Below, one piece after another: positions 23,971 to 64,000 of a stretch of DNA of 64,000 bases (within the stretch, counting starts at the first letter, position 1; each line of letters starts with the position of its first letter). Source of the DNA: a virus; IMG/VR virus record IMGVR_UViG_3300032271_000867, positions 24,413-88,412 of that record; one strand, written 5' to 3'. Under the pieces are notes generated by a model, which was not told the DNA's origin, did no database searches, and worked only from the letters and a program-made list of their open reading frames with translations. The translations under genes were made by a program, and so were the position numbers.

Positions 23971-24618
23971 TTATGCACTGAGGGTAAAAGAACCAATACT
24001 TGTGTATTTATTACTTACAAGTTGATCTAGTTTTACTTTATTTACTTTTTGAACAGCTATATAGGTTTCTACAGGAAGTTCGCTTGAAATTCTTACTGTA
24101 ATTGCATTTACAAATAAGCGCTTTGCCTGTTCTGTAATATCTCTTTTTGAGATAGCCATGACATCTAGTCTTCGCATAGTAGAAGTAACTAAAGTGTCTG
24201 AACCAGATACTGTAGTTTTTTCTACTACTTCTAGAGTGCCAAATCTAATTGGTAATTTATACCCCATTAATTGAGAAATAATTTCACGGTCATGTCTTGG
24301 ATGACGAGCGTATGAAGTTACTTGGTAATCAATAAATACTGGAATAGGTAGATGGTGGTTATAGTTTTGAGGAGATGCAAGGTTAGTGTATCCAGGAGCA
24401 GTTCCATAGCCACGCATCTCTCGTGTATTATCCCGTTGAATATCGATCATGTCGATTGTTATGTATGGATAATTTTGAGTTCTTAGTTCTTGGTCTGGTT
24501 GACCAAACCAAACACCTACTTGACGAGAAACTGAATCTGCATCTGATTTTTGATCAGTAACAATAATTCCTTGAAGTTGCTCACGAAGAGCTTTATCTTC
24601 TGACAATAAAAAAGTCAT
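23971..24618 (-). CDS. Putative tail completion/terminator protein
   Basis: Directly upstream of the sheath gene; YPYITID, YQVTSYARHPRHD. Confidence 0.6.
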   Translation of the reverse strand: MTFLLSEDKALREQLQGIIVTDQKSDADSVSRQVGVWFGQPDQELRTQNYPYITIDMIDIQRDNTREMRGYGTAPGYTNLASPQNYNHHLPIPVFIDYQVTSYARHPRHDREIISQLMGYKLPIRFGTLEVVEKTTVSGSDTLVTSTMRRLDVMAISKRDITEQAKRLFVNAITVRISSELPVETYIAVQKVNKVKLDQLVSNKYTSIGSFTLSA

Positions 24619-42100: not shown

Positions 42101-43216
42101 TTAGTTGGTGTAAACCTTAACAATAGCCTGGTCGGTGATCACACCAAGACCCCAGATTGAGTACCATGCTAGAGCATGCTCACGACCAAAGTCTAGAACA
42201 CCGCCATCACGAAGCTCAACTGGAAGGCTGATTGCGTGACCAAATGCGTTGTCACCAATCATGATTGACTCGTAGACATCTGCACCTGGAGTACCAGAAG
42301 TTGCAGTTGCACCTGAGTTCTCAGGGTTACCACCAAGACCTGGGCCAGTGTTAGCCTTTACAGGAACACCGGTCTGGTCAGCAACAGTACCAACTAGTGA
42401 GCTGTAGTCAACTGCTACACTGCTAGTTAGCTTGTTAACCTGAGTGGTCTCGATGAATACGACGTCATATAGACGGCCAATCTCACCTAGCATAAAGTTA
42501 CCTGGGGCAGCATACTTGGTAACTTCGATAAACTCTGGGTTTGAACGAAGGTCACGTGACTGCTTAGGGTGAATGAACTGGACGTAGGTCTCACCTAGAC
42601 GTGGAATGTTCTTACTAGCAAGAGTAAGAGCAGCATCCTTGATTGCACCAGTGGTTAGCTTAAACTGACCAGTTAGTGAAGCAAGCGAAGTACCTACAGT
42701 ACCTTCAGCATAAGTGTTGAAGGTAGTTGATGCTGAGAAACCTGAACGGTCATAACCATAGACAGCTGAGGTAGCAGCTGCAAGAGTGTTACGTGCCTGG
42801 AGGTCTAGGTACTGTGCCATGTGGCGACCTAGAAGACGTGAAGCCGAAGCCATGATGTCGTCAAACGAAGCGTTCAATAGAAGCTCCGAAACAGCGACAG
42901 CATAACCGTGCTCTGCAACAGTAATAGCAATCTGCTCTGCAGTCAAAGCGTTAGTGGTCATACGTACACCTTCAGTAAGTGGAGAAGCCACTACATCAAA
43001 GTTCTTGTAACGTAGGAAGTTAACACGAAGACCAGGAGCTACACCAAGTTCAGTTTTCTTAACAGCAAACTGCTCGAAGCGTAGAATTGGCATTGCCTGG
43101 AAAAGGATTTCCTTTGACCAGATGGTTTGAATAGCCTGCGATAGCTGACTATTAGAACCCGAATAAGCGGTAGGGGCTCCAGCAAGCTGGCCCGAACCTG
43201 TAATAGCTGACGCCAT
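42101..43216 (-). CDS. Major capsid protein (N4-gp56 family)
   Basis: WSKEILFQAMPILRFEQFA, LTEGV, EHGYAV, FIHPKQ..DL, GEIGRLYDVVFIET, DFGREH.LAWY. Confidence 0.93.
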   Translation of the reverse strand: MASAITGSGQLAGAPTAYSGSNSQLSQAIQTIWSKEILFQAMPILRFEQFAVKKTELGVAPGLRVNFLRYKNFDVVASPLTEGVRMTTNALTAEQIAITVAEHGYAVAVSELLLNASFDDIMASASRLLGRHMAQYLDLQARNTLAAATSAVYGYDRSGFSASTTFNTYAEGTVGTSLASLTGQFKLTTGAIKDAALTLASKNIPRLGETYVQFIHPKQSRDLRSNPEFIEVTKYAAPGNFMLGEIGRLYDVVFIETTQVNKLTSSVAVDYSSLVGTVADQTGVPVKANTGPGLGGNPENSGATATSGTPGADVYESIMIGDNAFGHAISLPVELRDGGVLDFGREHALAWYSIWGLGVITDQAIVKVYTN

Positions 43217-43251
43217 TTATTTGCTCCTTTCAAGAGCGTTGATAGGTTAGG

Positions 43252-44010
43252 TTAGTTACCGAACAATCCCTGTCCACGGTTATTACTGTTGCCCAAAAGT
43301 TTTGAGCGATTTTTGATGTATTCGTCCATTGGCATCTTAGAGATGTCTTCCGGTGTATATGATCGTTGGTCCATATTGTTGTCGAGGGGTCCAGACGCAG
43401 GAACTGTAATTCTAGTTCCTACTTGTTCCTTACGACTCTGCTGTGCCACTGACGCAACAGAGTCCAGGATTTTAGCAGAGCGATCTTTCATAACTAAGAC
43501 GCTCTGCTCTATCTCGTCTTTAGTTCCACCCTGAATTAAATCTAATAATTCAGGAAGTACATTGTCACGTTCTTGGTCAATACGCTGACGGCGGTATGTG
43601 TCTAGCTCTTGATACTCACGTTCACGCTGAAGAAGTGCAAATGTGCGCTCTCGCTCTTGGCGCTCTGCCTCAAGCTTTGCTGCCCATTCATCTTCTTTAG
43701 TTTTTAGAAGTTGTTTAAAAGACATTTCGTCTTCTTCTTGAGCCTTTTTTTCAGCAAGCCGCTGTGCTTCACGTTCATGGCGTTTAGCCTGTTTTTCCGC
43801 TTCTCTAGCAGCTTGTTCTTCACGCTCTTTGCGAAGAATAGAAATTTCTTCCTGTAACTTTTCTAGTTGAGGATATAACTTATCTTTTTCTTGTTTTCTA
43901 GCTTTTTGAATAGCCTCTGTAAGATCCGATTGATTTGGGATCTCTACTTCAGGGGTATTCGGCGTTGTTGGCTCTGATTCAGTTTCAAAACCATCTTCGT
44001 TATTTTCCAT
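43252..44010 (-). CDS. Capsid scaffolding protein
   Basis: Coiled-coil Glu/Lys/Arg-rich; between portal and capsid; C-terminal I..M.MDEY.K.R.KLL. Confidence 0.8.
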   Translation of the reverse strand: MENNEDGFETESEPTTPNTPEVEIPNQSDLTEAIQKARKQEKDKLYPQLEKLQEEISILRKEREEQAAREAEKQAKRHEREAQRLAEKKAQEEDEMSFKQLLKTKEDEWAAKLEAERQERERTFALLQREREYQELDTYRRQRIDQERDNVLPELLDLIQGGTKDEIEQSVLVMKDRSAKILDSVASVAQQSRKEQVGTRITVPASGPLDNNMDQRSYTPEDISKMPMDEYIKNRSKLLGNSNNRGQGLFGN

Positions 44011-44134
44011 AAATACATATTCTCTTTTCATTCACTTGGTCGTTTTCCGAATTAATAACACATGACCTATTACTTGTACAAAACTATTGCACCGCATTAT
44101 AGACAAATTGTCTCTATAAACTCAATAAAAATTA

Positions 44135-45878
44135 TTAATCTTTATCTACAGTTCTTCTTTGCGGTAGTTTAGTTCCATACGCTTCTGTTACAAGGGCATT
44201 CCTAATTGAAGCCTCACCCTGCAAAATCTCTTCTGCTGATTGCGTATTTTCAGGAGACTTTTCATTTTCTGGAGTTTGAGGTCCTAGAACACCATCTCCA
44301 AGAACATCGCCATCACCCATCATCATTGGGTCCATTGGAGTAGCAACTCCACCTTCAGGACCAGGCATCATGCCAGTTAGATCCATAATTTCTTTTTGAA
44401 TCTGAGTTCTGATGAGAGTTAGAGCACCATCTGCTTCAGCATCTGCAATAAGCTCTGCACGAATTTCTTGTAGTTTCTCTTCTGGGAATTCCTCACCAAG
44501 AGCACGAAGAGCGCCTTCTTTAGATTCAAGACCCAAAGACATTTTAGTCTGTAACTCATTAAGCAAGATAAGTTTATCTAGAGGAAGTGGGTTAGGAAAT
44601 TGTGCATAAGTTACATAGGTAAGAGGATCATTAGGATCAAGTTGAGCTACTTGACCTTCTTTAATAGGCCCATCTGTTTCTGGATTGTAACTAAAAGTTT
44701 CTGGTTCTTTTACAGCTAGGTTCAAAAGAATAAGCTGGTTAATTTCCTCTAGACCTCTGCCATACTGAGAAACTTTTTGTGACCAGCGATTCATAAGAGG
44801 CTGATATTGAATAGAAAGAGCAACACCAGAAGTGTTAGAAATTGGTTGAATTTGGCCAAGAGCAGCTTCTGGAATATTCATAAGTTCATGCATTGATGTT
44901 TTCAACATTTGCATATATTCCATAGCACCTGAAAGTCCGGCAGATCCACCTTCTAAGTTAAATACTTGTGCATCTTTAGGAAGGCCTCCCCAAACTTTCT
45001 TAGCGCCTTTTTCCATACCTTCAAGTTTTGCTCCAACAACAACAGTTACAGGAGCTGCGTGATAATTAACAATATCTGCAATGTCAGTTGCAATTTCGTT
45101 GTAAGAACGATTTATGGTAATAATGTCGTGAGCGTCTGAAAGACCCCAAGGCGAACCAGATACAGGAATGTTAGGGATGTGGACAACTGGAATTTGTCCC
45201 AAAGGGTTTGGTCTGCTGTCGATAAGTTCGTCATTTACATACTCCTCAATAATGTCGTCAGTAAGAATCTCAGTATAGGTATAGACCTGACGGGTACCTT
45301 CTAAGCTAGTACCCCAAAAACGATATTTTTGCTTAAAACGAAGAAGACGGCTACGATCGTGAGGGTGAAACTCTGGAAAACAAAACGCAGGGTTTAAAGG
45401 AAGAACACGAACACGGCCTGGGTGAAAACGTCCGATGCTATCTTCCCAAGCTTCTTCATAAGCAATTTTAACAAAACAATCCCCTGTAATACCGCCAGTT
45501 TGTGCCATTTCAAGTAGAACACGCTGTTTGTTATTGTCAATTTCCCAAACTCGTTCTAGACGATCTGGAACAATAGCTTCAGTAGCTTTAGGAGAACGGA
45601 AGTGGATACCTTTACCAAAAGTAAACCTAGCAAGATAGTCTAGGAATGCACGGTAGTAGTTAAGCGAAATTTGCATTTCGCCTTGTTCTCTACGGTAGCC
45701 CCAATGGTGTCCCAAGTACATGGCCCAGTTGAGTGAGTAACGATTTAGGCGAGGACCATGGACCTCACTATTCAAATTCCTCGTCTGCTAATTCAACTAA
45801 TCCAAGTGGAGAAATGGAAATAGTTAAGTCAGAAGACGCCGCACGATAAGATGGCGGTGAAAAATCAAGGAATGACAT
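44135..45878 (-). CDS. Portal protein (SPP1 gp6-like), reading frame interrupted by a 7-nt insert at 45764-45773
   Basis: Strong SD AAGGAGGTGA, ATG 45878, 36 codons MSFLDF..ELADEEFE, then TAG; resumes in the +1 frame VHGPRLNRYS..; portal motifs NYYRAFLD, GITGDCFV, IPVVHIPN..WGLSD, NTSGVAL. Confidence 0.9.
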
Positions 45879-46204
45879 CAGGCATCACCTCCTTAGAATT
45901 CTGGAGGTTTCGTACCTCATTGGCAATACGCTTTTTGATTTCATCTGTAAAAGGAAAAATTGCATTTTTACGGATGTTACAAGGAGAACAAGCTGGGCGT
46001 AAATTATCCACAGTATGTGCTCCTCCTTTTGAAAGTGGTTGAACATGGTCCCAATGAATATCTGTCAAAGGTTGTTTACAAATCCAACATAGATTGTTAA
46101 ATTCTTCTAAAATACTTTCATATTCTTTATCAGAAATCTTAGTAAACTTAGTATTAGCTTTTTGTGCTCTACGTTCACGTTCTTTTCTAGCTACTACTTA
46201 ATCA
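45865..46204 (-). pseudogene. HNH endonuclease that has lost an in-frame start
   Basis: Open frame 45865-46197 with CWIC..HWDHVQPLSKGGAHTVDNLRPACSPCNIRK; the only coupled start reads ATG ATT AAG TAG in another frame. Confidence 0.65.
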
Positions 46205-46488
46205 TCTTTTTTGTCGTGCTTAGAATCTTTTTTGTGAAGTTTCTTTTTTAACTCAGCTTTTTTAGCTTTTAATTCTTGAATTCGTTCTTCACGTTTTGAG
46301 CTAAATTGACGACTCATAATTTTCTTGCGTCTAGTTTCTTCTGAAGTATCTTCAAATTTTCCACCATTTTTAATATATTGCTGGTGGACCCAGTGAGATG
46401 CCCCCGGATTAGGATAGTTAGTATACTTAGCTTTAGCTTGGGTAATAATCATTGCCCAAAGCCTTGTGTTTGTAGGTACCTGTGCCAT
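46198..46488 (-). CDS. Basic hypothetical phage protein
   Basis: N..LW....QAKAKY..YP...AS.W...Y...GG.F motif; AAGGA SD. Confidence 0.7.
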   Translation of the reverse strand: MAQVPTNTRLWAMIITQAKAKYTNYPNPGASHWVHQQYIKNGGKFEDTSEETRRKKIMSRQFSSKREERIQELKAKKAELKKKLHKKDSKHDKKDD

Positions 46489-46509
46489 AACTGTCCTTAA
46501 CGATTAATA

Positions 46510-46534
46510 TACCCCCTGCTATTAACAGGGGGTA
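46510..46534 (-). terminator. Probable terminator hairpin
   Basis: TACCCCCTG / CAGGGGGTA 9-bp stem just after the 46546 stop. Confidence 0.6.
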
Positions 46535-46545
46535 ATAAGCAATTA

Positions 46546-46941
46546 TTAGTCGTTTACAACCGTTGGATTCATGCGCATGGTACGGCCACCAGAAACAAAC
46601 TTCTCTTCAATTTTCTGTTCTGCATAGTCAGTAAATGAACCATGTGCAAATTCTCCAAGGAAAGTTGGTGCTTCGATCCATGCAGCTGAACCTACGTGTG
46701 CTCGCTCTGAAAGAGTCTCAGCAGCTGGCTTCTGCCATACTGGTGCATTACGGTTTGGACGACCTGGTGCGGCTGCAAAGCCGTTCATAATACCAGTCTG
46801 AAAATCAGTAGGTACGTCAGTGTCGGTTGCGATGCCTTCTTCAAAACGAAGTGGGCCCCGGCGCTCTGGATTGCCGGTTAGTTTACGCTCATAAATCTGT
46901 GGTGAACGCTCAGGGAACTGAGGTGCTGGACCAATGCCCAT
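46546..46941 (-). CDS. Hypothetical protein between terminase and portal
   Basis: 131 aa, AAGGAG SD, high-expression-type codon use. Confidence 0.7.
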   Translation of the reverse strand: MGIGPAPQFPERSPQIYERKLTGNPERRGPLRFEEGIATDTDVPTDFQTGIMNGFAAAPGRPNRNAPVWQKPAAETLSERAHVGSAAWIEAPTFLGEFAHGSFTDYAEQKIEEKFVSGGRTMRMNPTVVND

Positions 46942-47038
46942 GTTGACTCCTTAAAGGTAGATAGGGAAAACTGCAGTATTTCCAATTATCAGTTTCTCTA
47001 ATTTTTGTGTATTTATCTTAGTTAACTCAAATTTTATT

Positions 47039-48640
47039 TTAAAAAAACGGATTAGCAGAAACTTGAACTGTAGGCATTACAAGTTCTTGAGTTAATGAAC
47101 AAGCAATAGCTAGTGAATCTACAAAGTCATCGTGAGCGTAGTTTTCATCAGGAGCTGCTACTGTAAAGTTTGGTCCTTTATATTGTACTTCAGCATCTGT
47201 CATTTGTTGATAGAAACGTTTCCATATTCTTAATCTTTTTGTTTTAGCATGGCCTGGAAAACCAATGGCTTGACGCTGAATAAGTGCCTGTAAATGTTTA
47301 AACCTTTTTGATTGCTCTGATTGACTTGACGTTAGCGGAATAACTTCAGATCTTGGAAGCAAGATTTTAAGACGTTGTGCAACAGCATCACCTACACCAT
47401 TAGCATCTACGCCTACTGCCAATACATCATAATTAGCTAAAAATGATTGAATTTTAAAGTATTGTTCTTCCCAGTCATCGCCTTGAATTTCAAGCCAATT
47501 TAACACACGATGATCAAAATACCCAAATTCATCTGGTCTATCCCAGTCAACCCAAACAACTGTAACAACAGTAGAGTCCATTTTACGAGCAGGGTCAATT
47601 CCAACTACCACTGGAGTTTTGTGCCACATAGGCTGAATTGGTTGAGAAGTATCGCACAAAGCATCTAATGCAGATGAAGTAACAAACATACCCCGTTCAA
47701 GCAACCATTTACAGTTGTAAGACATTTGAAACTCATCTGAGTCTTCACCAATACGAAGCATTTCTTTTTTTATAAACTTTAGATAATTTTCGTTATATTT
47801 AGCGACATCCCTCCAGTCCCATTGAAAATGATTTTGTTTACCATTACGGCCAGTTTGACGTCGTTTATTAAGTTGAATAGCTCTATAAAAGTTATTTTTA
47901 CTAGTAGTAGGAGTTCCCGTTTTAACCATAGTACCTGCATAGTATGCAAGCATAGGGCTAATAGATTTTGAAACTACAAAATCATCAGCTTCTTGACATT
48001 CATCAATGACAATAAGATGAAATGATTTAGACTCAATTTTTGCTCTTGGGTTTGCAGTCATCATGGTAATTGATGACCCTAACTTTTTTAGTCTAATTTG
48101 ACGAGTAACGCCACCTACACGAGCAGCAGAGTCATCAATTTCTGGATCTGCAAATACACTATTAGCATGTTCTGAGGTAAGTCGGGTTACTACACGACTA
48201 AATAATGTTTCAGCCTGACTTTCAGTAGGAGCAAATAACCCTACCCAAATACCATTTTTAAATTTACTAAGAAGATCCGGATAAATATCAGAAAGAAGAG
48301 GAAGAAGGATCATTAAAGTAGCAACAGTATCCGCCACAGTTTCCGATTTTCCTGACTGACGAGAAGCTAATGCAGTAACTTCTTCGCCATCATTAATCAA
48401 CACAGATTCAATGATTCTTCTTGCAAGTGGCTTTTGATAAGGATGCAAATCATGCCCAACAAGTACTACAAGAAACTGCATAATTTTGTCTATTAATTTG
48501 ACAACAAATTCTTTGCTTAATTCATCGAGCTCATCATCGGCATCATCTTCAAAAAACTCATCTTGTTTAAAATTTTCTGGATTAATTTCCTCAAATTTAT
48601 CATCACCAATGTAAATTTCTTCTGCGGAATTAAAATCCAT
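47039..48640 (-). CDS. terL: Terminase large subunit
   Basis: LHPYQ, ASRQSGKS (Walker A), LIVIDECQ (Walker B), GTP, VGIDPARKMDST, HDDFVDSLA nuclease motifs. Confidence 0.95.
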   Translation of the reverse strand: MDFNSAEEIYIGDDKFEEINPENFKQDEFFEDDADDELDELSKEFVVKLIDKIMQFLVVLVGHDLHPYQKPLARRIIESVLINDGEEVTALASRQSGKSETVADTVATLMILLPLLSDIYPDLLSKFKNGIWVGLFAPTESQAETLFSRVVTRLTSEHANSVFADPEIDDSAARVGGVTRQIRLKKLGSSITMMTANPRAKIESKSFHLIVIDECQEADDFVVSKSISPMLAYYAGTMVKTGTPTTSKNNFYRAIQLNKRRQTGRNGKQNHFQWDWRDVAKYNENYLKFIKKEMLRIGEDSDEFQMSYNCKWLLERGMFVTSSALDALCDTSQPIQPMWHKTPVVVGIDPARKMDSTVVTVVWVDWDRPDEFGYFDHRVLNWLEIQGDDWEEQYFKIQSFLANYDVLAVGVDANGVGDAVAQRLKILLPRSEVIPLTSSQSEQSKRFKHLQALIQRQAIGFPGHAKTKRLRIWKRFYQQMTDAEVQYKGPNFTVAAPDENYAHDDFVDSLAIACSLTQELVMPTVQVSANPFF

Positions 48641-56835: not shown

Positions 56836-56903
56836 TCGTCTTCGTCATCTTCGTCAATGAAAATAAAGTCTTCATCGCCCTCGTCTTCAAGTTCATTCCA
56901 CAT
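56832..56903 (-). CDS. 23-aa acidic micro-ORF (not in track)
   Basis: MWNELEDEGDEDFIFIDEDDEDE; TAATG-coupled start and ATGA-coupled stop. Confidence 0.5.
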   Translation of the reverse strand: MWNELEDEGDEDFIFIDEDDEDE

Positions 56904-57253
56904 TAAAAACCACCAAATGATCCAAAAGTATTGTTTGGATTATTCCCAAATTGACTACGAGATAAATTTTTTGATACTGCATTAGCCATACCTAATGCCA
57001 CACCTACTTTTGCAGTCCTTACAACATTTCTAAAAGGTTTATCTAATTGGCCAGCTCTAGCAGCAGTATCAAAACTTTGTCCTGCTTGTTTAATTACATT
57101 TCCAACTTGCTCAGTAATTGGGTGGTTTAAAAACCCACCAACTTTACCTCCACCAGTTTTGATGGCATTAAAACTTGGTTTAGCAGCTTGAAAAGCAGGT
57201 TTAACAGCATCTGCTGCACCTTTATAAATTGCACTAAATGGTAGACTTGCCAT
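56903..57253 (-). CDS. Hypothetical Ala/Gly-rich protein with NLSRSQF near the C-terminus
   Basis: 116 aa; AGGA SD. Confidence 0.6.
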   Translation of the reverse strand: MASLPFSAIYKGAADAVKPAFQAAKPSFNAIKTGGGKVGGFLNHPITEQVGNVIKQAGQSFDTAARAGQLDKPFRNVVRTAKVGVALGMANAVSKNLSRSQFGNNPNNTFGSFGGF

Positions 57254-58458: not shown

Positions 58459-58890
58459 TTATGAGATATATTCTAGTAGGTTTTTTATGTTTTGTGTACT
58501 ATCTTTTAAAATACCTAACGCAACATTGCATGGAAAACATAGCACACCACGAACACAACTTCCACAAGAAAAACGTTTATTACAGCAAGAATGATCATGA
58601 TCAATGTTAACTGCTTCATTTACTTTACAGGCATGGCAGTTACCCTCGTATAAAGCTAATAACTCATTGTACTTTTCTTCAGTTAGTTTATGTCGTTTCC
58701 AGTTAGTTCTGTAAGTAGAACTCATTTGTACTTTTTCAGCGTATTTTTCAGGATTATCTTTATAATACTGAGAAACATAAGTTGAATGACATTTTTTACA
58801 AATGTTTCTTCGTCCATCTACATATTTTGCACCTTTGGCAAACAATTCTAGATCTTTATCTTCGTTGCATTTATTACACGTTTTTATCAT
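58459..58890 (-). CDS. Endonuclease VII-like (His-Me finger) homing-type endonuclease
   Basis: KTCNKC..CKKC N-terminal; CHAC..IDHDH..VRGVLCFPCNVALG. Confidence 0.88.
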   Translation of the reverse strand: MIKTCNKCNEDKDLELFAKGAKYVDGRRNICKKCHSTYVSQYYKDNPEKYAEKVQMSSTYRTNWKRHKLTEEKYNELLALYEGNCHACKVNEAVNIDHDHSCCNKRFSCGSCVRGVLCFPCNVALGILKDSTQNIKNLLEYIS

Positions 58891-58909
58891 AAAAACAGTA
58901 TAGCATTAG

Positions 58910-58989
58910 TGGACCTGGGGCGAATTGAACGCCCGTCTTACTTCCTCCGACATGCGGCTTTAAAAAGCAATCGACACCATTTCAGGCCC
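58910..58989 (-). ncRNA. 80-nt tmRNA-like RNA consisting of the tRNA-like domain only
   Basis: GGGCCTG AAATGGTGTCGA TTGCTTTT..GGAAGTAA GAC GGGCG TTCAATT CGCCC CAGGTCC A: G3.U70, A73, stemless D-loop, helix 2a, GAC linker, T arm; no room for a tag ORF. Confidence 0.8.
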
Positions 58990-58996
58990 TAGACAT

Positions 58997-59020
58997 CCTG
59001 GGCACTGTTAAGCACCCAGG
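58997..59020 (-). other. Hairpin just 5' of the tmRNA-like RNA
   Basis: Minus CCTGGGTGCT-TAAC-AGTGCCCAGG; needs G.U pairs, so it forms only on the minus strand. Confidence 0.55.
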
Positions 59021-59047
59021 TGTTTATTTGTCTAGTCTACACCAAAG

Positions 59048-59140
59048 TTAATTGATTTTAATGACTTTTGGGCGTTTTTCAATAGGTAGTTCTCGGTTGA
59101 ACTGAACAGTCAACATACCGTTCTCAAGCAGGGCATTGGT
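59048..59140 (-). pseudogene. Start-less diverged duplicate of the last 30 codons of hsp20
   Basis: TNALLENGMLTVQFNRELPIEKRPKVIKIN* versus TNALLENGMLTVQFNKNLPEEKKPKVIDIH* at 59228-59320. Confidence 0.85.
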
Positions 59141-59227
59141 TGTGGGACTTCCACCCACCGTCTAAACTTTCCAACTCCCAAGATGTAAGTTGCAAAACTT
59201 AGTCAGTAAACTATTGAATCACACTTT

Positions 59228-59752
59228 TTAGTGAATGTCAATAACCTTCGGCTTTTTTTCTTCAGGAAGGTTTTTGTTGAACTGAACTGTAAGCATGCCG
59301 TTTTCAAGCAGGGCATTGGTGACTTCCCAATACTCAGCTACAGCAAGTTCTAGTTTAAAATCACGAGTAGCAATTCCTTGGTAAACAACTTCGCCAAGTT
59401 GCTTATCTTTTTTCTTACCTTCAATAGTAAGAACAGAATCTTGAACAGTTACAGTGATTTCTTTTTTGTAAAAACCAGCCACAGCTACATTAAGTAGGTT
59501 AGTACCATCTTCCAACGACACAATGTCGTATGGAGGATAAGAGGGGCGATTGTTAGTTACTTCTTTGAGTTGTTCAAGAAGGGGAAACCAGCCAATAGAT
59601 AGGCGGTCTAGGCGGGGAAACAAGTCAGCAATAGTGACTGGTCTCGGCACAGATGGGGTTTTCCACTGGTCATAGTAATCCAAACCATGTGGATTCTTTT
59701 TCTTTTGGGTTTTTGACCAAGGGTTTTGTGGGTCAAATGGTTGTTCGTGCAT
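59228..59752 (-). CDS. hsp20: Small heat-shock protein (Hsp20/IbpA family)
   Basis: SYPPYDI, VAVAGF, LTIEG, YQGIATRDF, A.LENGML.V, PEEKKPKVI.I. Confidence 0.93.
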   Translation of the reverse strand: MHEQPFDPQNPWSKTQKKKNPHGLDYYDQWKTPSVPRPVTIADLFPRLDRLSIGWFPLLEQLKEVTNNRPSYPPYDIVSLEDGTNLLNVAVAGFYKKEITVTVQDSVLTIEGKKKDKQLGEVVYQGIATRDFKLELAVAEYWEVTNALLENGMLTVQFNKNLPEEKKPKVIDIH

Positions 59753-59779
59753 ATTGTCTCCTTAGACGACAACTGTGCT

Positions 59780-59824
59780 ATGAGAACGAACGGTTACAAT
59801 CTCAAATGAGAACGAACGGTTACA
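59780..59824. repeat. 19-bp direct repeat, two copies, inside an inverted repeat in the hsp20 leader
   Basis: ATGAGAACGAACGGTTACA at 59780-59798 and 59806-59824; enclosed by ACTGTGCTA (59772-59780) / TAGCACAGT (59835-59843). Confidence 0.9.
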
Positions 59825-59879
59825 TTACTGCCCGTAGCACAGTATTAGTTATAGACACCCGATTGGCATGTCTAAAAAG

Positions 59880-59888
59880 ATTATAACA
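59880..59888 (-). promoter_or_regulatory. Extended -10 promoter for hsp20
   Basis: TGTTATAAT on the minus strand about 130 nt upstream of the ATG. Confidence 0.6.
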
Positions 59889-59890
59889 GA

Positions 59891-59992
59891 TTATTTAAAT
59901 GTTACAGGAATATGAGTCATACCAAGCTGTCTTGCAGCCATAACTCGGTGGTGTCCTTCAAATTGCTGGCCCATATTTTCTTTACTTGTCAC
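59891..59992 (-). CDS. 33-aa mini-ORF: QF tag fused to a ParB-like C-terminal fragment (not in track)
   Basis: MTSKENMGQQF + EGHHRVMAARQLGMTHIPVTFK; GTG start. Confidence 0.55.
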   Translation of the reverse strand: MTSKENMGQQFEGHHRVMAARQLGMTHIPVTFK

Positions 59993-60007
59993 TAGTATTG
60001 CCCGATC

Positions 60008-60481
60008 TTAATTGTAATCATTTTTAAATGCGTTAAAATCGTCAATATGTTGTAAAAACTCATGAGGAGTAAATAACCCTTTTTCATAAGGAGCATCTCC
60101 ATAACCTCCAATATTCTTAGAATCAATACTGGTTGCATCTACTAACCCATGTTTTGGGTGATGATGCTCAATGTAGGGGCCTCCATACCAAGTATGCTTC
60201 CAACCATCCGGTTCAGTATGGCTGACATGAAATTGGCTATTTTCATCTGATTTGATCATAGAATTAGGAAAATGAGTAGCACGATTCATAAATGTATAAT
60301 TACGATGAGTAACTAACTCGTCTTCAGAAGCATCAGACTTAGGGCCACCAAAAATAGCTGCAATTCCATCCATTAAATTTAAAGCAATTGCTTTAGCATG
60401 CATTTCTTTTTGTTCATTTTTAGAAACATTACGACCAATAATACCATCAAATTGGGAACCAAGGTTTTCTTCACTTGTCAT
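60008..60481 (-). CDS. Hypothetical protein with N-terminal QF tag
   Basis: Probable start ATG 60481 (MTSEENLGSQF), overlapping the upstream stop; the track start 60598 overlaps another gene by over 100 nt. Confidence 0.65.
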   Translation of the reverse strand: MTSEENLGSQFDGIIGRNVSKNEQKEMHAKAIALNLMDGIAAIFGGPKSDASEDELVTHRNYTFMNRATHFPNSMIKSDENSQFHVSHTEPDGWKHTWYGGPYIEHHHPKHGLVDATSIDSKNIGGYGDAPYEKGLFTPHEFLQHIDDFNAFKNDYN

Positions 60482-60944
60482 TATTGTTTTTACCCCAATC
60501 ATGGCCATTTGTATCATCTTTTTTACTATTTTTATTATTTTTCCAAACATCATCCCCATAAGCATAATTACCAGATAATTTAGAATAATTAAACGCACTA
60601 GAATTCATACTGTTAGCTCTAGTGCTTAAACTAAGTGCTAATGGAGTATCCGGATATTTTGTGCTAAATTCTTTAGCTGCCTTTGCCCAATGGCTTGCTG
60701 CGTTAGTTAAATGATTTGAAGCTTCTAAATAATTACGATTAACATGCTCTTTAATTGCTGCTTCAAAATGAGGGTTAGCATTAGAAATGTGATTAGCTAC
60801 TGCATCTAATGCACCTTGCATATCTGAAGTACCAAAAGCATCTACATCTTTCAACAATCCATCAGTATTTTTACGCATACTGACTAAATATAGAGTTAGT
60901 TTATCATGCAAAAATTGCTTGCCAAAATTATTCTCATGAGCCAT
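60471..60944 (-). CDS. Helical hypothetical protein with N-terminal QF tag
   Basis: MAHENNFGKQF..; helical core with similarity to 62014..62523 (NY.EAS.....A..H). Confidence 0.65.
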   Translation of the reverse strand: MAHENNFGKQFLHDKLTLYLVSMRKNTDGLLKDVDAFGTSDMQGALDAVANHISNANPHFEAAIKEHVNRNYLEASNHLTNAASHWAKAAKEFSTKYPDTPLALSLSTRANSMNSSAFNYSKLSGNYAYGDDVWKNNKNSKKDDTNGHDWGKNNNDK

Positions 60945-61257
60945 TTGGGTCTTTTGCCTCTCCTATGACTTTGAAACCACGTCTATCATTGATCTCTTTA
61001 CCCTCAAATCTATTATTAGTTAATTCTTCTGCAGGACTCAATGGCTCTACTTCCCAAACTTTAGGGGTATAACCAGCTTCACGTTGACTTTGTACAACAA
61101 GTCTTCCATTTGCATAACTTTTAGCAAAATCATAATCTGGTGTGGCTGATGCACCAAATTTTCTTCGTGAGGGAATTATATCTCCAGGTTTATAAGGACG
61201 AGAAGATCCATGGTACAAAGTACCAAATTGATGGGCACTATTATTTTGTTCACTCAT
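60934..61257 (-). CDS. Putative ADP-ribosyltransferase (Arr-like) with N-terminal QF tag
   Basis: MSEQNNSAHQF then LYHGS..YKPGDII..ASATPD...A..YA..KVWEVEP..E. Confidence 0.65.
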   Translation of the reverse strand: MSEQNNSAHQFGTLYHGSSRPYKPGDIIPSRRKFGASATPDYDFAKSYANGRLVVQSQREAGYTPKVWEVEPLSPAEELTNNRFEGKEINDRRGFKVIGEAKDPNGS

Positions 61258-61549
61258 TTGGGTGTACCTCTGCATTGTGGGCTAATAGATTTGTGTAACC
61301 ATGAGGAATAATTTGGCCACAACCTCTTGTACAAAGAAATCCTTCTTCAGGTGTTTCTTTTTTAAACCCAAAACCACTGTCATTACGCTCCATGCCTTCT
61401 GGTATTGGAGTTTGTTGTGCGGCACTCATCGAAGATCCGGCTCTAGGAGGTTGTGCCTTCTTTTTTCTTTTTTTAGGTTTTTTTGGTTGAGGCCCAAAAT
61501 CATCATCACCAGAAAGCCACTCACCTTCATTACTCCACATTCTTCCCAT
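61250..61549 (-). CDS. Hypothetical protein with Lys tract and C2H2-like end
   Basis: CTRGC..H....H; AAGGAG SD. Confidence 0.6.
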   Translation of the reverse strand: MGRMWSNEGEWLSGDDDFGPQPKKPKKRKKKAQPPRAGSSMSAAQQTPIPEGMERNDSGFGFKKETPEEGFLCTRGCGQIIPHGYTNLLAHNAEVHPNE

Positions 61550-62014
61550 TTATTTCTCCTTTCCACCATTGTGCTCTGGATCATGATCCCAGTGGTCTTC
61601 TAAGCCCCATCTGCTTTCTGCAACATAATCGCAAGGTTTACCAGTCATATCATTAGTTTGACCACAGTAATGCAACCCGTAATCTTTAGATCGGTAATTA
61701 CTTTCATTCCAAAACTCATGTGGTTTATCAGAAAAAATAGGTTTATCAGGTTTAGGATATGAAGAATGTCCAACACCGGCATCTTCCAAAGTTGACCAAC
61801 AAGAGTCACATTCTGGGCTATCTGTACCACCCTCTACACCAGAATAAGCGTGTTTTTTACACATAGAGCAAGTAAATGGCTTACCAAAAGTATTTTGGTA
61901 CTCTTGCTCAGACATACGCAAATTATTAACTCTATGGTTATAGCTAATATCTGTAAGGTTTAAAGGTTGATTACCTTCGTAATACCCGCTTTTATCTTCT
62001 GGCAATTGTGCCAT
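61550..62014 (-). CDS. Hypothetical Zn-binding protein
   Basis: CSMC, CDSC, C..C..H...H motifs. Confidence 0.6.
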   Translation of the reverse strand: MAQLPEDKSGYYEGNQPLNLTDISYNHRVNNLRMSEQEYQNTFGKPFTCSMCKKHAYSGVEGGTDSPECDSCWSTLEDAGVGHSSYPKPDKPIFSDKPHEFWNESNYRSKDYGLHYCGQTNDMTGKPCDYVAESRWGLEDHWDHDPEHNGGKEK

Positions 62015-62523
62015 TATTCACTCATCATTCTTTTATAAGAGTTTGCAGTTTCTTTACTTAGTTCAATATGTTTATCAATTACATCATTGATTGGGTGGTT
62101 ACCAAACGAAGCTTTAGCATAATTAGCAGCAAATGACAGTTGGTGATGGGCCATAAGCATATTTTGTGAAGCTTCATTGTAATCACCAAGTTTGTGATTG
62201 TCATATGACTGGCGCAAATATTGTTGTGCTAAATCTACGTGATCTAATGATTTTGGCAAAAATTCTGGTGCATTTTTGTGAGCAAGTAATTCCGGATTCA
62301 TACGAATATGGTTACCAATATTTACGGCAAAACTATCGCCAATTTGGTTCATAGTTTTTAAATGCTCTAGACCTTTTAAATGATTAAGTACTGGGTCAAA
62401 TTGACTACCATTTAAATTTCTAGCTCTTTCTTGATCCCATTTGTTAGTTTGCTCTTCTTTAATAAGGCGTTGATGTGCTGCCTCTAAATCATCGTCACTT
62501 GGCATTTCAAAGTTATTAGCCAT
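62014..62523 (-). CDS. Helical His-rich hypothetical protein with internal NLNGSQF
   Basis: 169 aa, TAATG-coupled. Confidence 0.65.
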   Translation of the reverse strand: MANNFEMPSDDDLEAAHQRLIKEEQTNKWDQERARNLNGSQFDPVLNHLKGLEHLKTMNQIGDSFAVNIGNHIRMNPELLAHKNAPEFLPKSLDHVDLAQQYLRQSYDNHKLGDYNEASQNMLMAHHQLSFAANYAKASFGNHPINDVIDKHIELSKETANSYKRMMSE

Positions 62524-62990
62524 TATTTTACCTTCTTTGCTTCAATACCAAGTTTCTCAAACATTTTAATATTTTTCTTTTTATCGTCATACGCTTTTTT
62601 GACATCAAACTTAGGAAGTATATCTTCTTCTAAAAGTTCTTTTTTTACTTTTTTGTCTTTTTCTGTCAAATCATCCGTAGGACGCATTATGAGAGCATCA
62701 TATGGTATATGGTTCTTATGTAACCATTTCTTAGTTTCAGGGCGATAGTAAGCACTTCTAGCCGTTAATATAACAATATTTTCGCCATTGGCTTTAGCTT
62801 TGTGCATTTTTTCTACAATGTCTTCTTTTACAGGCACATCGAGAGCTTCTTTAGCAAAATCCTCATTACGGTGTTTGTGATGTTTTTCATACTTCATGTC
62901 ATCGGCAATTGTGCCATCTAGATCAAACAACACAGTTTTAGCTCTTTTGTGAAGAGGTTTTTGTAATTCAAAGTCGTTATTCTTTGACAT
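62523..62990 (-). CDS. HAD-family phosphatase (like the phosphatase domain of T4 polynucleotide kinase)
   Basis: LFDLDGTIAD, ILTAR, YDALIMRP, K, AYDD. Confidence 0.88.
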   Translation of the reverse strand: MSKNNDFELQKPLHKRAKTVLFDLDGTIADDMKYEKHHKHRNEDFAKEALDVPVKEDIVEKMHKAKANGENIVILTARSAYYRPETKKWLHKNHIPYDALIMRPTDDLTEKDKKVKKELLEEDILPKFDVKKAYDDKKKNIKMFEKLGIEAKKVK

Positions 62991-63475
62991 TATTCTTCAT
63001 CTATTCTCTTAGGGATGCCATCTGATCCTAATCTGTATTTTTTATCATAAACAACTGCAGGGGTATACCCTTTCATACTTACTCTTTTTACAAACTTTTC
63101 ATACGGCTCTACTAAAGGAAATTTAGCATTGTCATTAAATTGTTTATGAGTAAAGTCAACTACATGCAATCCTTCAGTAGTATGGACAACATTTACGTAA
63201 TGGTTTTCTTTAGTAATAGGATGCTTAAACTCTAGTTGTCCTGATCTATAATCTGGTAAATAAGGCTCAACTGCATCTGCCGCTTTGTCACATTCTCCAG
63301 TAGCACCCCATTTATTTCCGTAAGAATACTGTAGATAGTTTTCTCCAGGTTCACCAGTATTACGATCTATGCCATTTTCCCCAAATCCTGGATGATCAAC
63401 ACTAATAAGTCCTTTAGCAATTGCTTTTAATTCTTTTGGAGTAACAAGTTTTGCTTGGTCAAATTCCATTCGCAT
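62990..63475 (-). CDS. Putative papain/transglutaminase-fold protein
   Basis: GECDKAA..NHYVNVV..VVDFTHKQF suggests a Cys-His-Asp triad. Confidence 0.5.
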   Translation of the reverse strand: MRMEFDQAKLVTPKELKAIAKGLISVDHPGFGENGIDRNTGEPGENYLQYSYGNKWGATGECDKAADAVEPYLPDYRSGQLEFKHPITKENHYVNVVHTTEGLHVVDFTHKQFNDNAKFPLVEPYEKFVKRVSMKGYTPAVVYDKKYRLGSDGIPKRIDEE

Positions 63476-63744
63476 TACTTTTTACCTCTAAGTTCCCACA
63501 TACGTTTACTGATGTTACCTACGCCACTGCCGGTAATGCGGTTAATGTCATTAAAAGTTTGATTTTTGTATGCTTCTTCATTATCTGCTAATTCTTGTTT
63601 TGCAGCTAAATGTTGCTCCAAAGAATGAGAAGGAATAATTTGATGAGTGTTTAGTGCACTTCTAATGTGCTGCCAAGTAGACCCTGTACCTGGCTCAATA
63701 ATACCGCCACATTCATAACAAGTTGGAGATATAGGACTAGTCAT
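63475..63744 (-). CDS. Hypothetical protein with CxxC
   Basis: ATG 63744 after a GAGGA SD; CYEC..WQH..H. Confidence 0.6.
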   Translation of the reverse strand: MTSPISPTCYECGGIIEPGTGSTWQHIRSALNTHQIIPSHSLEQHLAAKQELADNEEAYKNQTFNDINRITGSGVGNISKRMWELRGKK

Positions 63745-63829
63745 TGTGCTTCCTCTCACAGTCCCTAGCTAAGGAAGGCACTGCGTGTTGTTTCTTGCAA
63801 ACTGTACAGGTGTACTTTGAAGTTTTCAT
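63737..63829 (-). CDS. 30-aa Zn-finger micro-protein (not in track)
   Basis: MKTSKYTCTVCKKQHAVPSLARDCERKHND; TAAACT -10 lies 7 nt upstream (leaderless). Confidence 0.55.
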   Translation of the reverse strand: MKTSKYTCTVCKKQHAVPSLARDCERKHND

Positions 63830-63872
63830 TACTGCAAGTTTACTGGCAACTACTTACTTTTTTCTGCTTATT

Positions 63873-64000
63873 TTAGTCGACTTCTCCACTAGAACGCTTA
63901 GGTAATCTAGATTTAGTAGATTTTGCCCAAAGTTCTCCAAGATCAGTTCTTTGATCTGAATGTACGGGATTTAAACCTTGCTGCTTGGCGTAGTTAAACA
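63873..64000 (-). CDS. C-terminal fragment of a probable GNAT-like protein (starts outside the window)
   Basis: ..FNYAKQQGLNPVHSDQRTDLGELWAKS.. resembles the HS..RT..G..W ending of phage GNAT-fold proteins. Confidence 0.45.
   Translation of the reverse strand, partial: FNYAKQQGLNPVHSDQRTDLGELWAKSTKSRLPKRSSGEVD

Follow-up and report, generated by a model that had tools for sequence, protein, structure and literature searches.

A short terminal peptide shared by unrelated small proteins in a large group of uncultured phages

Why would four neighbouring phage genes that encode unrelated proteins all begin with the same short peptide? The genes in question lie side by side in a 64,000-nucleotide stretch of virus DNA (positions 24,413 to 88,412 of IMG/VR record IMGVR_UViG_3300032271_000867; this whole stretch is called the window below), and each starts with an 11-residue tag, M-x4-N-x3-QF. 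A first-pass annotation of the window had proposed that the tag is a capsid-packaging signal for injected effector proteins. We found that the tag exists and is modular, and that it recurs on many otherwise unrelated small proteins of related phages. Loading of these proteins into the virus head is our leading, though tentative, explanation, and it is weighed here against four others.

Four tagged starts and a wider tag family

Translation of the four genes placed Asn at residue 6 and QF at residues 10-11 of every tag, as the first-pass annotation had described for these adjacent genes. Residue 8 is Gly in genes 2, 3 and 4, again as described, and Ala in gene 1. The starts themselves have support: that of gene 1 (61257) is the gene call on record and the exact 107-residue protein is present in the database, that of gene 2 (60944) is the first ATG in its open reading frame (ORF), and that of gene 3 (60481) is backed by database homologues of 143-158 residues with the same N-terminal tag. 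The starts of genes 1-3 overlap the upstream stop by 8, 11 and 11 nucleotides, and gene 4 starts 15 nucleotides past the stop of gene 3.

Table 1. Features of the window and of related loci. Coordinates are those of the window unless a locus is named.
Feature	Coordinates	Strand	Start, basis or position
Gene 1, 107 aa, tag then Arr-like mini ADP-ribosyltransferase	60934..61257	minus	profile, model, Foldseek
Gene 1 tag, MSEQNNSAHQF	61225-61257	minus	ATG 61257
Gene 2, 157 aa, tag then orphan body	60471..60944	minus	translation
Gene 2 tag, MAHENNFGKQF	60912-60944	minus	ATG 60944
Gene 3, 157 aa, tag then domain without family assignment	60008..60481	minus	translation and homologues
Gene 3 tag, MTSEENLGSQF	60449-60481	minus	ATG 60481
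Gene 4, 33 aa, GTG start, tag joined to ParB_N end	59891..59992	minus	PHROG ParB-like, E ~1e-3
Gene 4 tag, (V/M)TSKENMGQQF	59960-59992	minus	GTG 59992
PNK-type phosphatase, 155 aa, start MSKNNDFELQ	62523..62990	minus	phrog_505 at 1.2e-28, match from residue 10
169-aa protein, start MANNFEM, internal NLNGSQFD	62014..62523	minus	no family match
hsp20, small heat-shock protein	59228..59752	minus	PF00011 at 9.6e-15, phrog_432 at 3.4e-31
19-nucleotide direct repeat, two copies	59780-59824	minus	between gene 4 and hsp20
36-aa ORF	59048-59158	minus	downstream of hsp20
116-aa Gly-rich protein, NLSRSQFG 19 residues from C-terminus	56903..57253	minus	ORF list
Head module	42101-48640		terminase, portal, scaffold candidate, capsid protein
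Scaffold candidate, 259 aa, charged coiled coil	43252-44031	minus	between portal and capsid protein
Full-length orthologue of gene 4, 108-aa ParB_N protein	L036:8722-9048
Second recurrent N-terminus	L097 767-4124; L111 2184-2642; L090 3226-4043
Genes ending ..(A)LIKGENK*	L002 6703-7634; L044 11247-11629; L048 11889-12530

A six-frame search of the record's genome (88,412 bases, 92% complete) gave 14 occurrences of the string N...QF. Six of the 14 contexts are free of stops, and four of these six are the tags, in each case five codons past the start. When every ATG, GTG or TTG with at least 30 codons downstream was scanned across the whole genome, tag-like starts near an upstream stop on the coding strand were confined to window positions 59992-62990. 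The DNA of any two tags is identical at 17-24 of 33 positions, versus only 8-11 of 33 in the next 33 nucleotides. The tag DNAs are therefore related but old and diverged, which agrees with the earlier statement that they are no recent DNA repeat. The motifs NLNGSQF and NLSRSQF, which had been pointed out as related, are indeed present in the 169- and 116-residue proteins, with an Asn-to-QF spacing unlike that of the tags.

We used the hsp20 gene as a handle and fetched 80 IMG/VR loci, 47 of them close (Hsp20 at least 59% identical) and 33 serving as an outgroup. A simple motif-blind rule was used to call genes on the hsp20 strand. For the close set it returned 1127 non-redundant ORF starts, with many spurious ones among them, so the tag fractions are conservative. 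The pattern ^M[GATS]x0-3 N x0-2 [AGVSDE] x0-1 [DEQ]F matched 54 of the 1127 starts, versus 1.03 on average and 4 at most when residues 2-16 were permuted. In the other controls this MGRNNADF-type pattern was found at 1 of 648 outgroup starts and at 3 of 2224 internal Met residues. Similarly, (L/M/I/F)(G/S/A)xQF matched 16 starts (shuffles 0.52, outgroup 1 of 648, internal Met 0 of 2224). Both patterns show enrichment at N-termini over shuffled controls, the kind of check that the first-pass annotation had proposed.

Aligned on their Phe, 91 tags read M-(G/T/A)-(R/A)-N-N-A-(D/Q/E)-F-(H/E/Q)-G-G. The Phe is residue 8 in 52 of them, and residue 2 is small in 82. The commonest form in the close set is M-(G/T/A)-R-N-N-A-D-F-x-G. 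Individual tag peptides include MGRNNADFHGG, MTSEENLGSQFDG and, at a C-terminus, ..NLGRQFE. Forms change within families. Orthologues in a 183-residue ParB-like family start MGANNADFHEG, MGRNIGDFHDG or MDIGKQFAS, those of another family MGANNGDF or MTSPENIGQQF, and those of gene 1 MGAENNLGPMF, MGRNAEF.. or MARNNADF... Since orthologues exchange tag forms, we regard these as one tag family, and the M-x4-N-x3-QF of the window is a local, longer form of it. The variant first noticed in the window is therefore real, but its scope was drawn too narrowly: the tag is much wider, with MGRNNADF commonest, and it is also C-terminal and linked to hsp20.

As an independent check, the degenerate DNA pattern ATGNNNMGNAAYAAYGCNGAYTTY was searched in IMG/VR and gave 55 exact matches in 43 stretches. 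All but three follow an in-frame stop by no more than 26 codons, mostly as TAATG stop/start overlaps; of the remaining three (L100, L103 and one in L124), two resemble chance hits within longer ORFs and one a gene in decay. The second codon, which the pattern leaves free, encodes G in 33 matches, T in 11, P in 6 and A in 5, and no other residue. When 8000 candidates were scored with a profile of 32 tagged N-termini, 36 proteins reached an E of 10 or better, all of them from metagenome sources.

A stricter DNA pattern has 13 matches within the pattern-fetched IMG/VR loci. In 596 Gb of prokaryote genomes it has two, both inside long bacterial ORFs, and the tag was not found there as a gene start. 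The tag was found only in viruses. The two bacterial matches are on Opitutae and Rhizomicrobium contigs (L144 and L145) from metagenome-assembled genomes, in an internal stretch MGRNNADF(E/F)G..FA.GID.D that lies 296 and 169 codons past the upstream stop; the stretch is a motif of bacterial proteins and matches by coincidence. We found no paper that describes the tag, and RNNADF turned up in none of the full texts searched, supplementary files aside.

A second recurrent N-terminus, MP(K/R)DRA(N/R)D..R or MAAPRRE.., was seen on several small neighbouring genes of related contigs.

Modularity, selection and flexibility of the tag

With the tag stripped, 121 distinct tagged proteins fell into 38 BLASTP groups, the largest with 22, 17, 10, 8 and 7 members. 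The three largest contain members scanned as GNAT, Arr-like and ParB_N. Two of four scanned GNAT members are above Pfam cut-offs and the Arr-like members are below, one scanned ParB_N relative (L125) is at the Pfam cut-off with 26.3 bits, and the PNK-type phosphatase is matched by PHROGs only. In each of these four cases the domain match begins past the tag, and the linker between tag and HGT motif can be anywhere from 0 to ~25 residues long.

The full-length orthologue of gene 4 ends in EGHHRVMAARELGMTHIPVVFK, and gene 4 is the tag joined straight to the matching last 22 ParB_N residues (EGHHRVMAARQLGMTHIPVTFK), the join falling at a shared (D/E)-G. The PHROG matches and this orthologue bear out the earlier reading of a ParB-like fragment. 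What gene 4 keeps is only the GHHR..IPV end of PF02195, short of a complete ParB N-terminal domain, and the gene is a deletion remnant. The fusion lies exactly at the tag; therefore genes are made and broken there. The tag is thus a modular element, and genes have been gained, lost and fused at it.

We also found the tag core at the other end of proteins. (L/M/I/F)(G/S/A/N)xQF stands within the last 13 residues in 8 cases from ~5 independent families, versus 0.62 in shuffles, while protein interiors have 11 in 114,111 positions. In AlphaFold2 models the predicted local distance difference test (pLDDT) is below 50 over the tag in two different folds (residues 1-8 in gene 1, 1-17 in gene 3). The models suggest that the tag is an unstructured, flexible terminal peptide.

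The peptide is kept while its DNA changes. Codons for Leu, Gly, Gln and Phe vary between tag instances, and 22 of 23 canonical tag DNAs are distinct. In an alignment of the gene 3 family (A5; 12 representatives, mean column identity 42%) the members are 29-46% identical, with one closer member at 70%, and the invariant columns are only M1, Q10, F11 and E23. In the Arr-like family the tag Phe is at least 90% conserved, and seven other columns, H16 and G17 among them, are invariant. These comparisons indicate that selection acts on the tag peptide at the protein level.

What may read the tag

Our leading explanation, advanced tentatively and by analogy, is that tagged enzymes are loaded into the capsid. 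The 11 residues would be a portable address peptide on the flexible end of many unrelated small accessory enzymes, read by one common partner that would belong to the virus head. Tagged ADP-ribosyltransferases, ParB-like proteins, acetyltransferases and the phosphatase would be loaded into the forming head and would enter the next cell together with the DNA, as happens in phage T4 with the internal proteins and Alt, but with the tag apparently staying uncut. In favour of head loading, the kinds of cargo are those of known packaged effectors (T4 Alt, P1 DdrB), and the array lies on the same strand as hsp20, the lysis genes and the head genes, directly upstream of them. Standing at one terminus or the other, as the tag does, would also be in keeping with a docking peptide. 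Of the packaging-signal claim, then, the portable, protein-selected tag on unrelated proteins stands, and packaging itself is a conjecture.

Several observations weigh against head loading. The Pfam prohead protease families S78 and S49 were not found in the 92%-complete genome (the control of the S77 search matched nowhere, which makes that search uninformative), and neither (L/I)-x-E nor another evident cleavage site is present in the tag consensus, so the 'address and cut' scheme of T4 is not followed here. The scaffold candidate does not carry the tag; its N-terminus, MDENLEV.. or similar, lacks the Phe in 5 of 5 relatives, and the ..N.GQGLFG(N)* at its C-terminus recalls the tag only loosely. 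Other contigs have single tagged genes among nucleotide-metabolism genes, not beside head genes, and the close linkage to hsp20 fits a non-capsid partner equally well. Moreover, tag codons are more A-rich than those of other gene starts (AGA 81% vs 47%, GCA 86% vs 55%, AAT at tag position 4 91% vs 59%), so part of the likeness between tags may come from RNA-level pressure or recent shared descent. A predicted complex of the capsid protein (A4) with residues 1-40 of the gene 3 family (A5) gave a score of 0.01 (mark 0.32), which speaks neither for nor against binding. Gene presence and absence in G000 versus G004, G009 and the phage BRock left too many candidates to pick out a tag reader.

The capsid protein matches phrog_1357, and the head genes are not T4-like. 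Two small conserved proteins also belong to the head module (window 46546-46941 and 46198-46488). The C-terminus of the scaffold candidate, ..KNRSKLLG..N.GQGLFG(N)*, is kept in 5 of 5 relatives. A 131-residue protein between terminase and portal (MGIGPAPQFPER) was also considered as a tag carrier and rejected: although conserved, it lacks the Asn, and in BRock a V takes the place of the F.

The closest known system is the capsid-targeting sequence of T4 (IPI-III, Alt), and this likeness, one of function, is conjectural. T-even internal proteins have only this sequence in common, according to the portions of PMC3012670 drawn on here, which present it as a ~10-residue N-terminal leader on diverse, fast-changing accessory proteins from variable loci. 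One cargo class is shared: T4 Alt is a packaged ADP-ribosyltransferase, as stated in the portions used of Iyer et al. 2017 (PMC5512222). The tag of the window phage is likewise a short N-terminal leader common to otherwise unrelated proteins. It differs in sequence, in the phage, which is not T4-like, in occurring C-terminally too, and in that neither a cleavage motif nor a prohead protease family was found.

The polyvalent proteins, with Dar and DdrB of P1, offer a second comparison. In the same portions of Iyer et al. 2017 (PMC5512222) their ADP-ribosyltransferase, ParB/Srx-type and other enzymes, aimed at host nucleic acids or proteins, are domains predicted or known to travel in the virion, and P1 DdrB has a ParB domain. 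There, however, the domains are fused in one giant protein, whereas here small separate genes each bear a tag of their own. Genes 1, 3 and 4 and the scanned tagged relatives have one domain each, gene 2 has no recognised domain, and only distant relatives of gene 3 are multidomain. Pfam matches to ART-PolyVal and Arr-ms are below cut-offs. In encapsulins, a short N- or C-terminal peptide directs unrelated cargo inside an HK97-type shell. The tag resembles such cargo-loading peptides in standing at either end of a protein (N-terminus 16 vs 0.5, C-terminus 8 vs 0.6, by sequence pattern). It has another motif, encapsulins are not viruses, and binding to the capsid is putative here.

Alternatively, the tag may dock enzymes on a hub outside the capsid, the first candidate being the phage Hsp20, which would hold, assemble or regulate them, and another a host protein. 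We regard a hub of this kind as possible but doubtful. An hsp20 match lies within 24 of the 43 stretches that were fetched by the tag DNA pattern alone, mostly on the same strand as the tag and 0.2-5 kb off. This includes lineages with a distant Hsp20, whose match to the clade profile is no better than E 1e-22 to 1e-43. By our estimate, a single-copy gene would by chance fall in a 10-kb segment of a 90-kb genome about one time in nine. The linkage may nevertheless be just a variable region beside a conserved gene in related genomes, and on the sequences at hand it is best described as a correlation among such genomes.

BRock has no hsp20 of the window family and no tag array, only loose single matches. 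The complete genome G009, whose capsid protein is 70% identical to that of the window, has no hsp20 even at E up to 10, and carries just one canonical tag, a MGRNNADF start on a 50-residue protein. The scarcity of tags in both phages fits a link with Hsp20, but a perfect tag without any hsp20 weakens the case for Hsp20 as an obligate partner. Peptides that dock on hubs are typically short motifs at one terminus or the other, and the groove of small heat-shock proteins docks I-x-I/V tails and the IPV motifs of BAG3. An L-X-I/L/V anchoring motif is mentioned in the abstract of PMC5028025. The tag resembles these motifs in that it is short and terminal and has a key hydrophobic residue, and an hsp20 gene is close by; it is not an I-x-I motif, and the connection to Hsp20 comes from gene neighbourhood only. 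Hsp20 is a candidate tag partner, or hsp20 may simply be an anchor gene. The more specific idea that it reads the tag, as an adaptor or holdase that would gather exchangeable tagged effectors in a form fit for head loading and tail passage, strikes us as quite unlikely.

Several features of hsp20 and its surroundings were seen alongside. A 19-nucleotide direct repeat, TGTAACCGTTCGTTCTCAT, stands in two copies 7 nucleotides apart, ~30 nucleotides upstream of the hsp20 start, and may be an operator or promoter element for hsp20. The Hsp20 N-terminal arms (window, L002-L021) have two or three (D/N)-P-(W/Y)-(D/G)-K repeats, for example PWDKHKNPYDPWDK, and in the same proteins the alpha-crystallin core and the C-terminal ..KVIDIK are conserved. 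The 36-residue ORF downstream of hsp20 repeats the C-terminal end of that gene (..ENGMLTVQFNRELPIEKRPKVIKIN).

The tag might also have no reader at all. It would then be a by-product, a favoured translation-start or coupling sequence that is copied when a new gene body is swapped in, which we consider unlikely. The overlap of starts with upstream stops (TAATG, ATGA), tag codons that are A-rich beyond the usual 5' bias, and the fusion of gene 4 exactly at the tag are what such copying would leave. There is also a precedent in these phages for a DNA-level cause of a shared peptide. By contrast with the tag, small consecutive genes downstream of hsp20 end in ..(A)LIKGENK* (Table 1), and since ..LIKGENK* encodes a Shine-Dalgarno sequence and an ATGA stop/start overlap, that shared C-terminal peptide has its cause in the DNA. 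For the tag, however, the amino acids are kept while codons change, and conservation does not extend upstream of the ATG. Phe, the residue conserved most strongly, has two codons, neither of them A-rich, and the tags use both TTT and TTC (52% and 48%). Q and F stay invariant in the gene 3 family despite its divergence. The same core is also enriched at C-termini.

It is very unlikely, in our estimate, that the tag is a timing signal, such as a degron or pro-degron through which all accessory enzymes would be equally short-lived. In bacteria, peptides at either terminus do act as protease tags, and the small residue 2 in 82 of 91 tags means that the Met would be removed, but the tag has no likeness to any degron that we could name. 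Compared with ClpX and ClpS degrons, and likewise with the beta-clamp motif, the SSB tail, proteasome GQYL/HbYX and ClpP LGF loops, it misfits in residue order or position. That the tag residues are the first structural element of each domain is scarcely credible: large multidomain gene 3 relatives do have the domain start ..DDDFGISKREQ inside the protein and the Arr profile alignment begins at the tag Phe, but two models show the tag unpacked and with low confidence, the same peptide stands on at least 38 unrelated groups, and linker length varies.

The array, its neighbours and the phage

The protein of gene 1 is Arr-like, as the first-pass annotation had suggested. Its family profile matches Arr 2HW2 at E=3.8e-4, its AlphaFold2 model (pLDDT 78.7 overall) retrieved Arr structures as the top three Foldseek hits (probability 1.00, TM 0.54-0.59), and H16 and G17 in the family are the invariant part of an HG(T/S) motif. 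Gene 1 has no match to Pfam PF12120 at E up to 0.1, and a relative reached 19.7 bits with this family, below the gathering cut-off of 25. A word-index protein search with gene 1 gave the self-match only, as did one with residues 1-40 of one tagged protein. Among viral contigs no relatives of the cargo proteins of genes 1-3 were found, except one 12-residue match (L001) that was disregarded.

Genes 2 and 3 are both without a Pfam or PHROG match. Gene 2 has no relative among the fetched loci, and an Atlas search by features returned nothing usable. Gene 3 has 22 relatives in a library of 1.84 billion proteins. Five of them (P0011, P0019, P0022, P0025 and P0027) are 428-653 residues long with the gene 3 domain internal. 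In these multidomain relatives the parts are set apart by ..SSKWY(L/E/H)(A/E)S.. and there are many HGT..GY..GCRC..C repeats; Pfam finds almost nothing in them and is uninformative.

The start of the PNK-type phosphatase is a short form of the tag, and its orthologues begin MSKNN(D/E/Q)FE(L/I)Q. The counterparts of the 116-residue protein in L006, L010 and L028, matched by position, are 61-68 residues long and end ..HLS(G/N)QFN..N*. On the minus strand, that of the array, no terminator-like sites were listed within 58800-64000, and a promoter and terminator scan of this region found no excess over shuffles. A blastn search of window 59200-62600 against a phage collection gave no match. Among sequencing runs, one DNA run contains the stretch and may be where it came from, while no RNA run with it is listed.

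The nearest cultured phages are LuckySocke, Alone3, BRock and their kin, which infect Streptomyces and are myoviruses. Their capsid proteins are 62-63% identical to that of the window, and they have TGT, SpoVS and RuvC genes in common with its genome. Because of this shared capsid protein and these shared genes, the host of the window phage is likely actinobacterial.

If the tag is an address label, it would mark, by sequence alone, the accessory 'weapon set' of a large uncultured freshwater phage group. This set includes ADP-ribosyltransferases, acetyltransferases and ParB-like enzymes, and the tag would be a handle for finding what such enzymes do to the host. Were head loading to hold, a cleavage-free tag that works without T4-like head machinery would widen what is known of phage protein sorting, and it could be used for loading foreign proteins. 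The link to hsp20 could give phage small heat-shock proteins a first function. Should Hsp20 itself prove to be the reader, actinobacterial phages would have a chaperone-assisted, cassette-based system of protein delivery.

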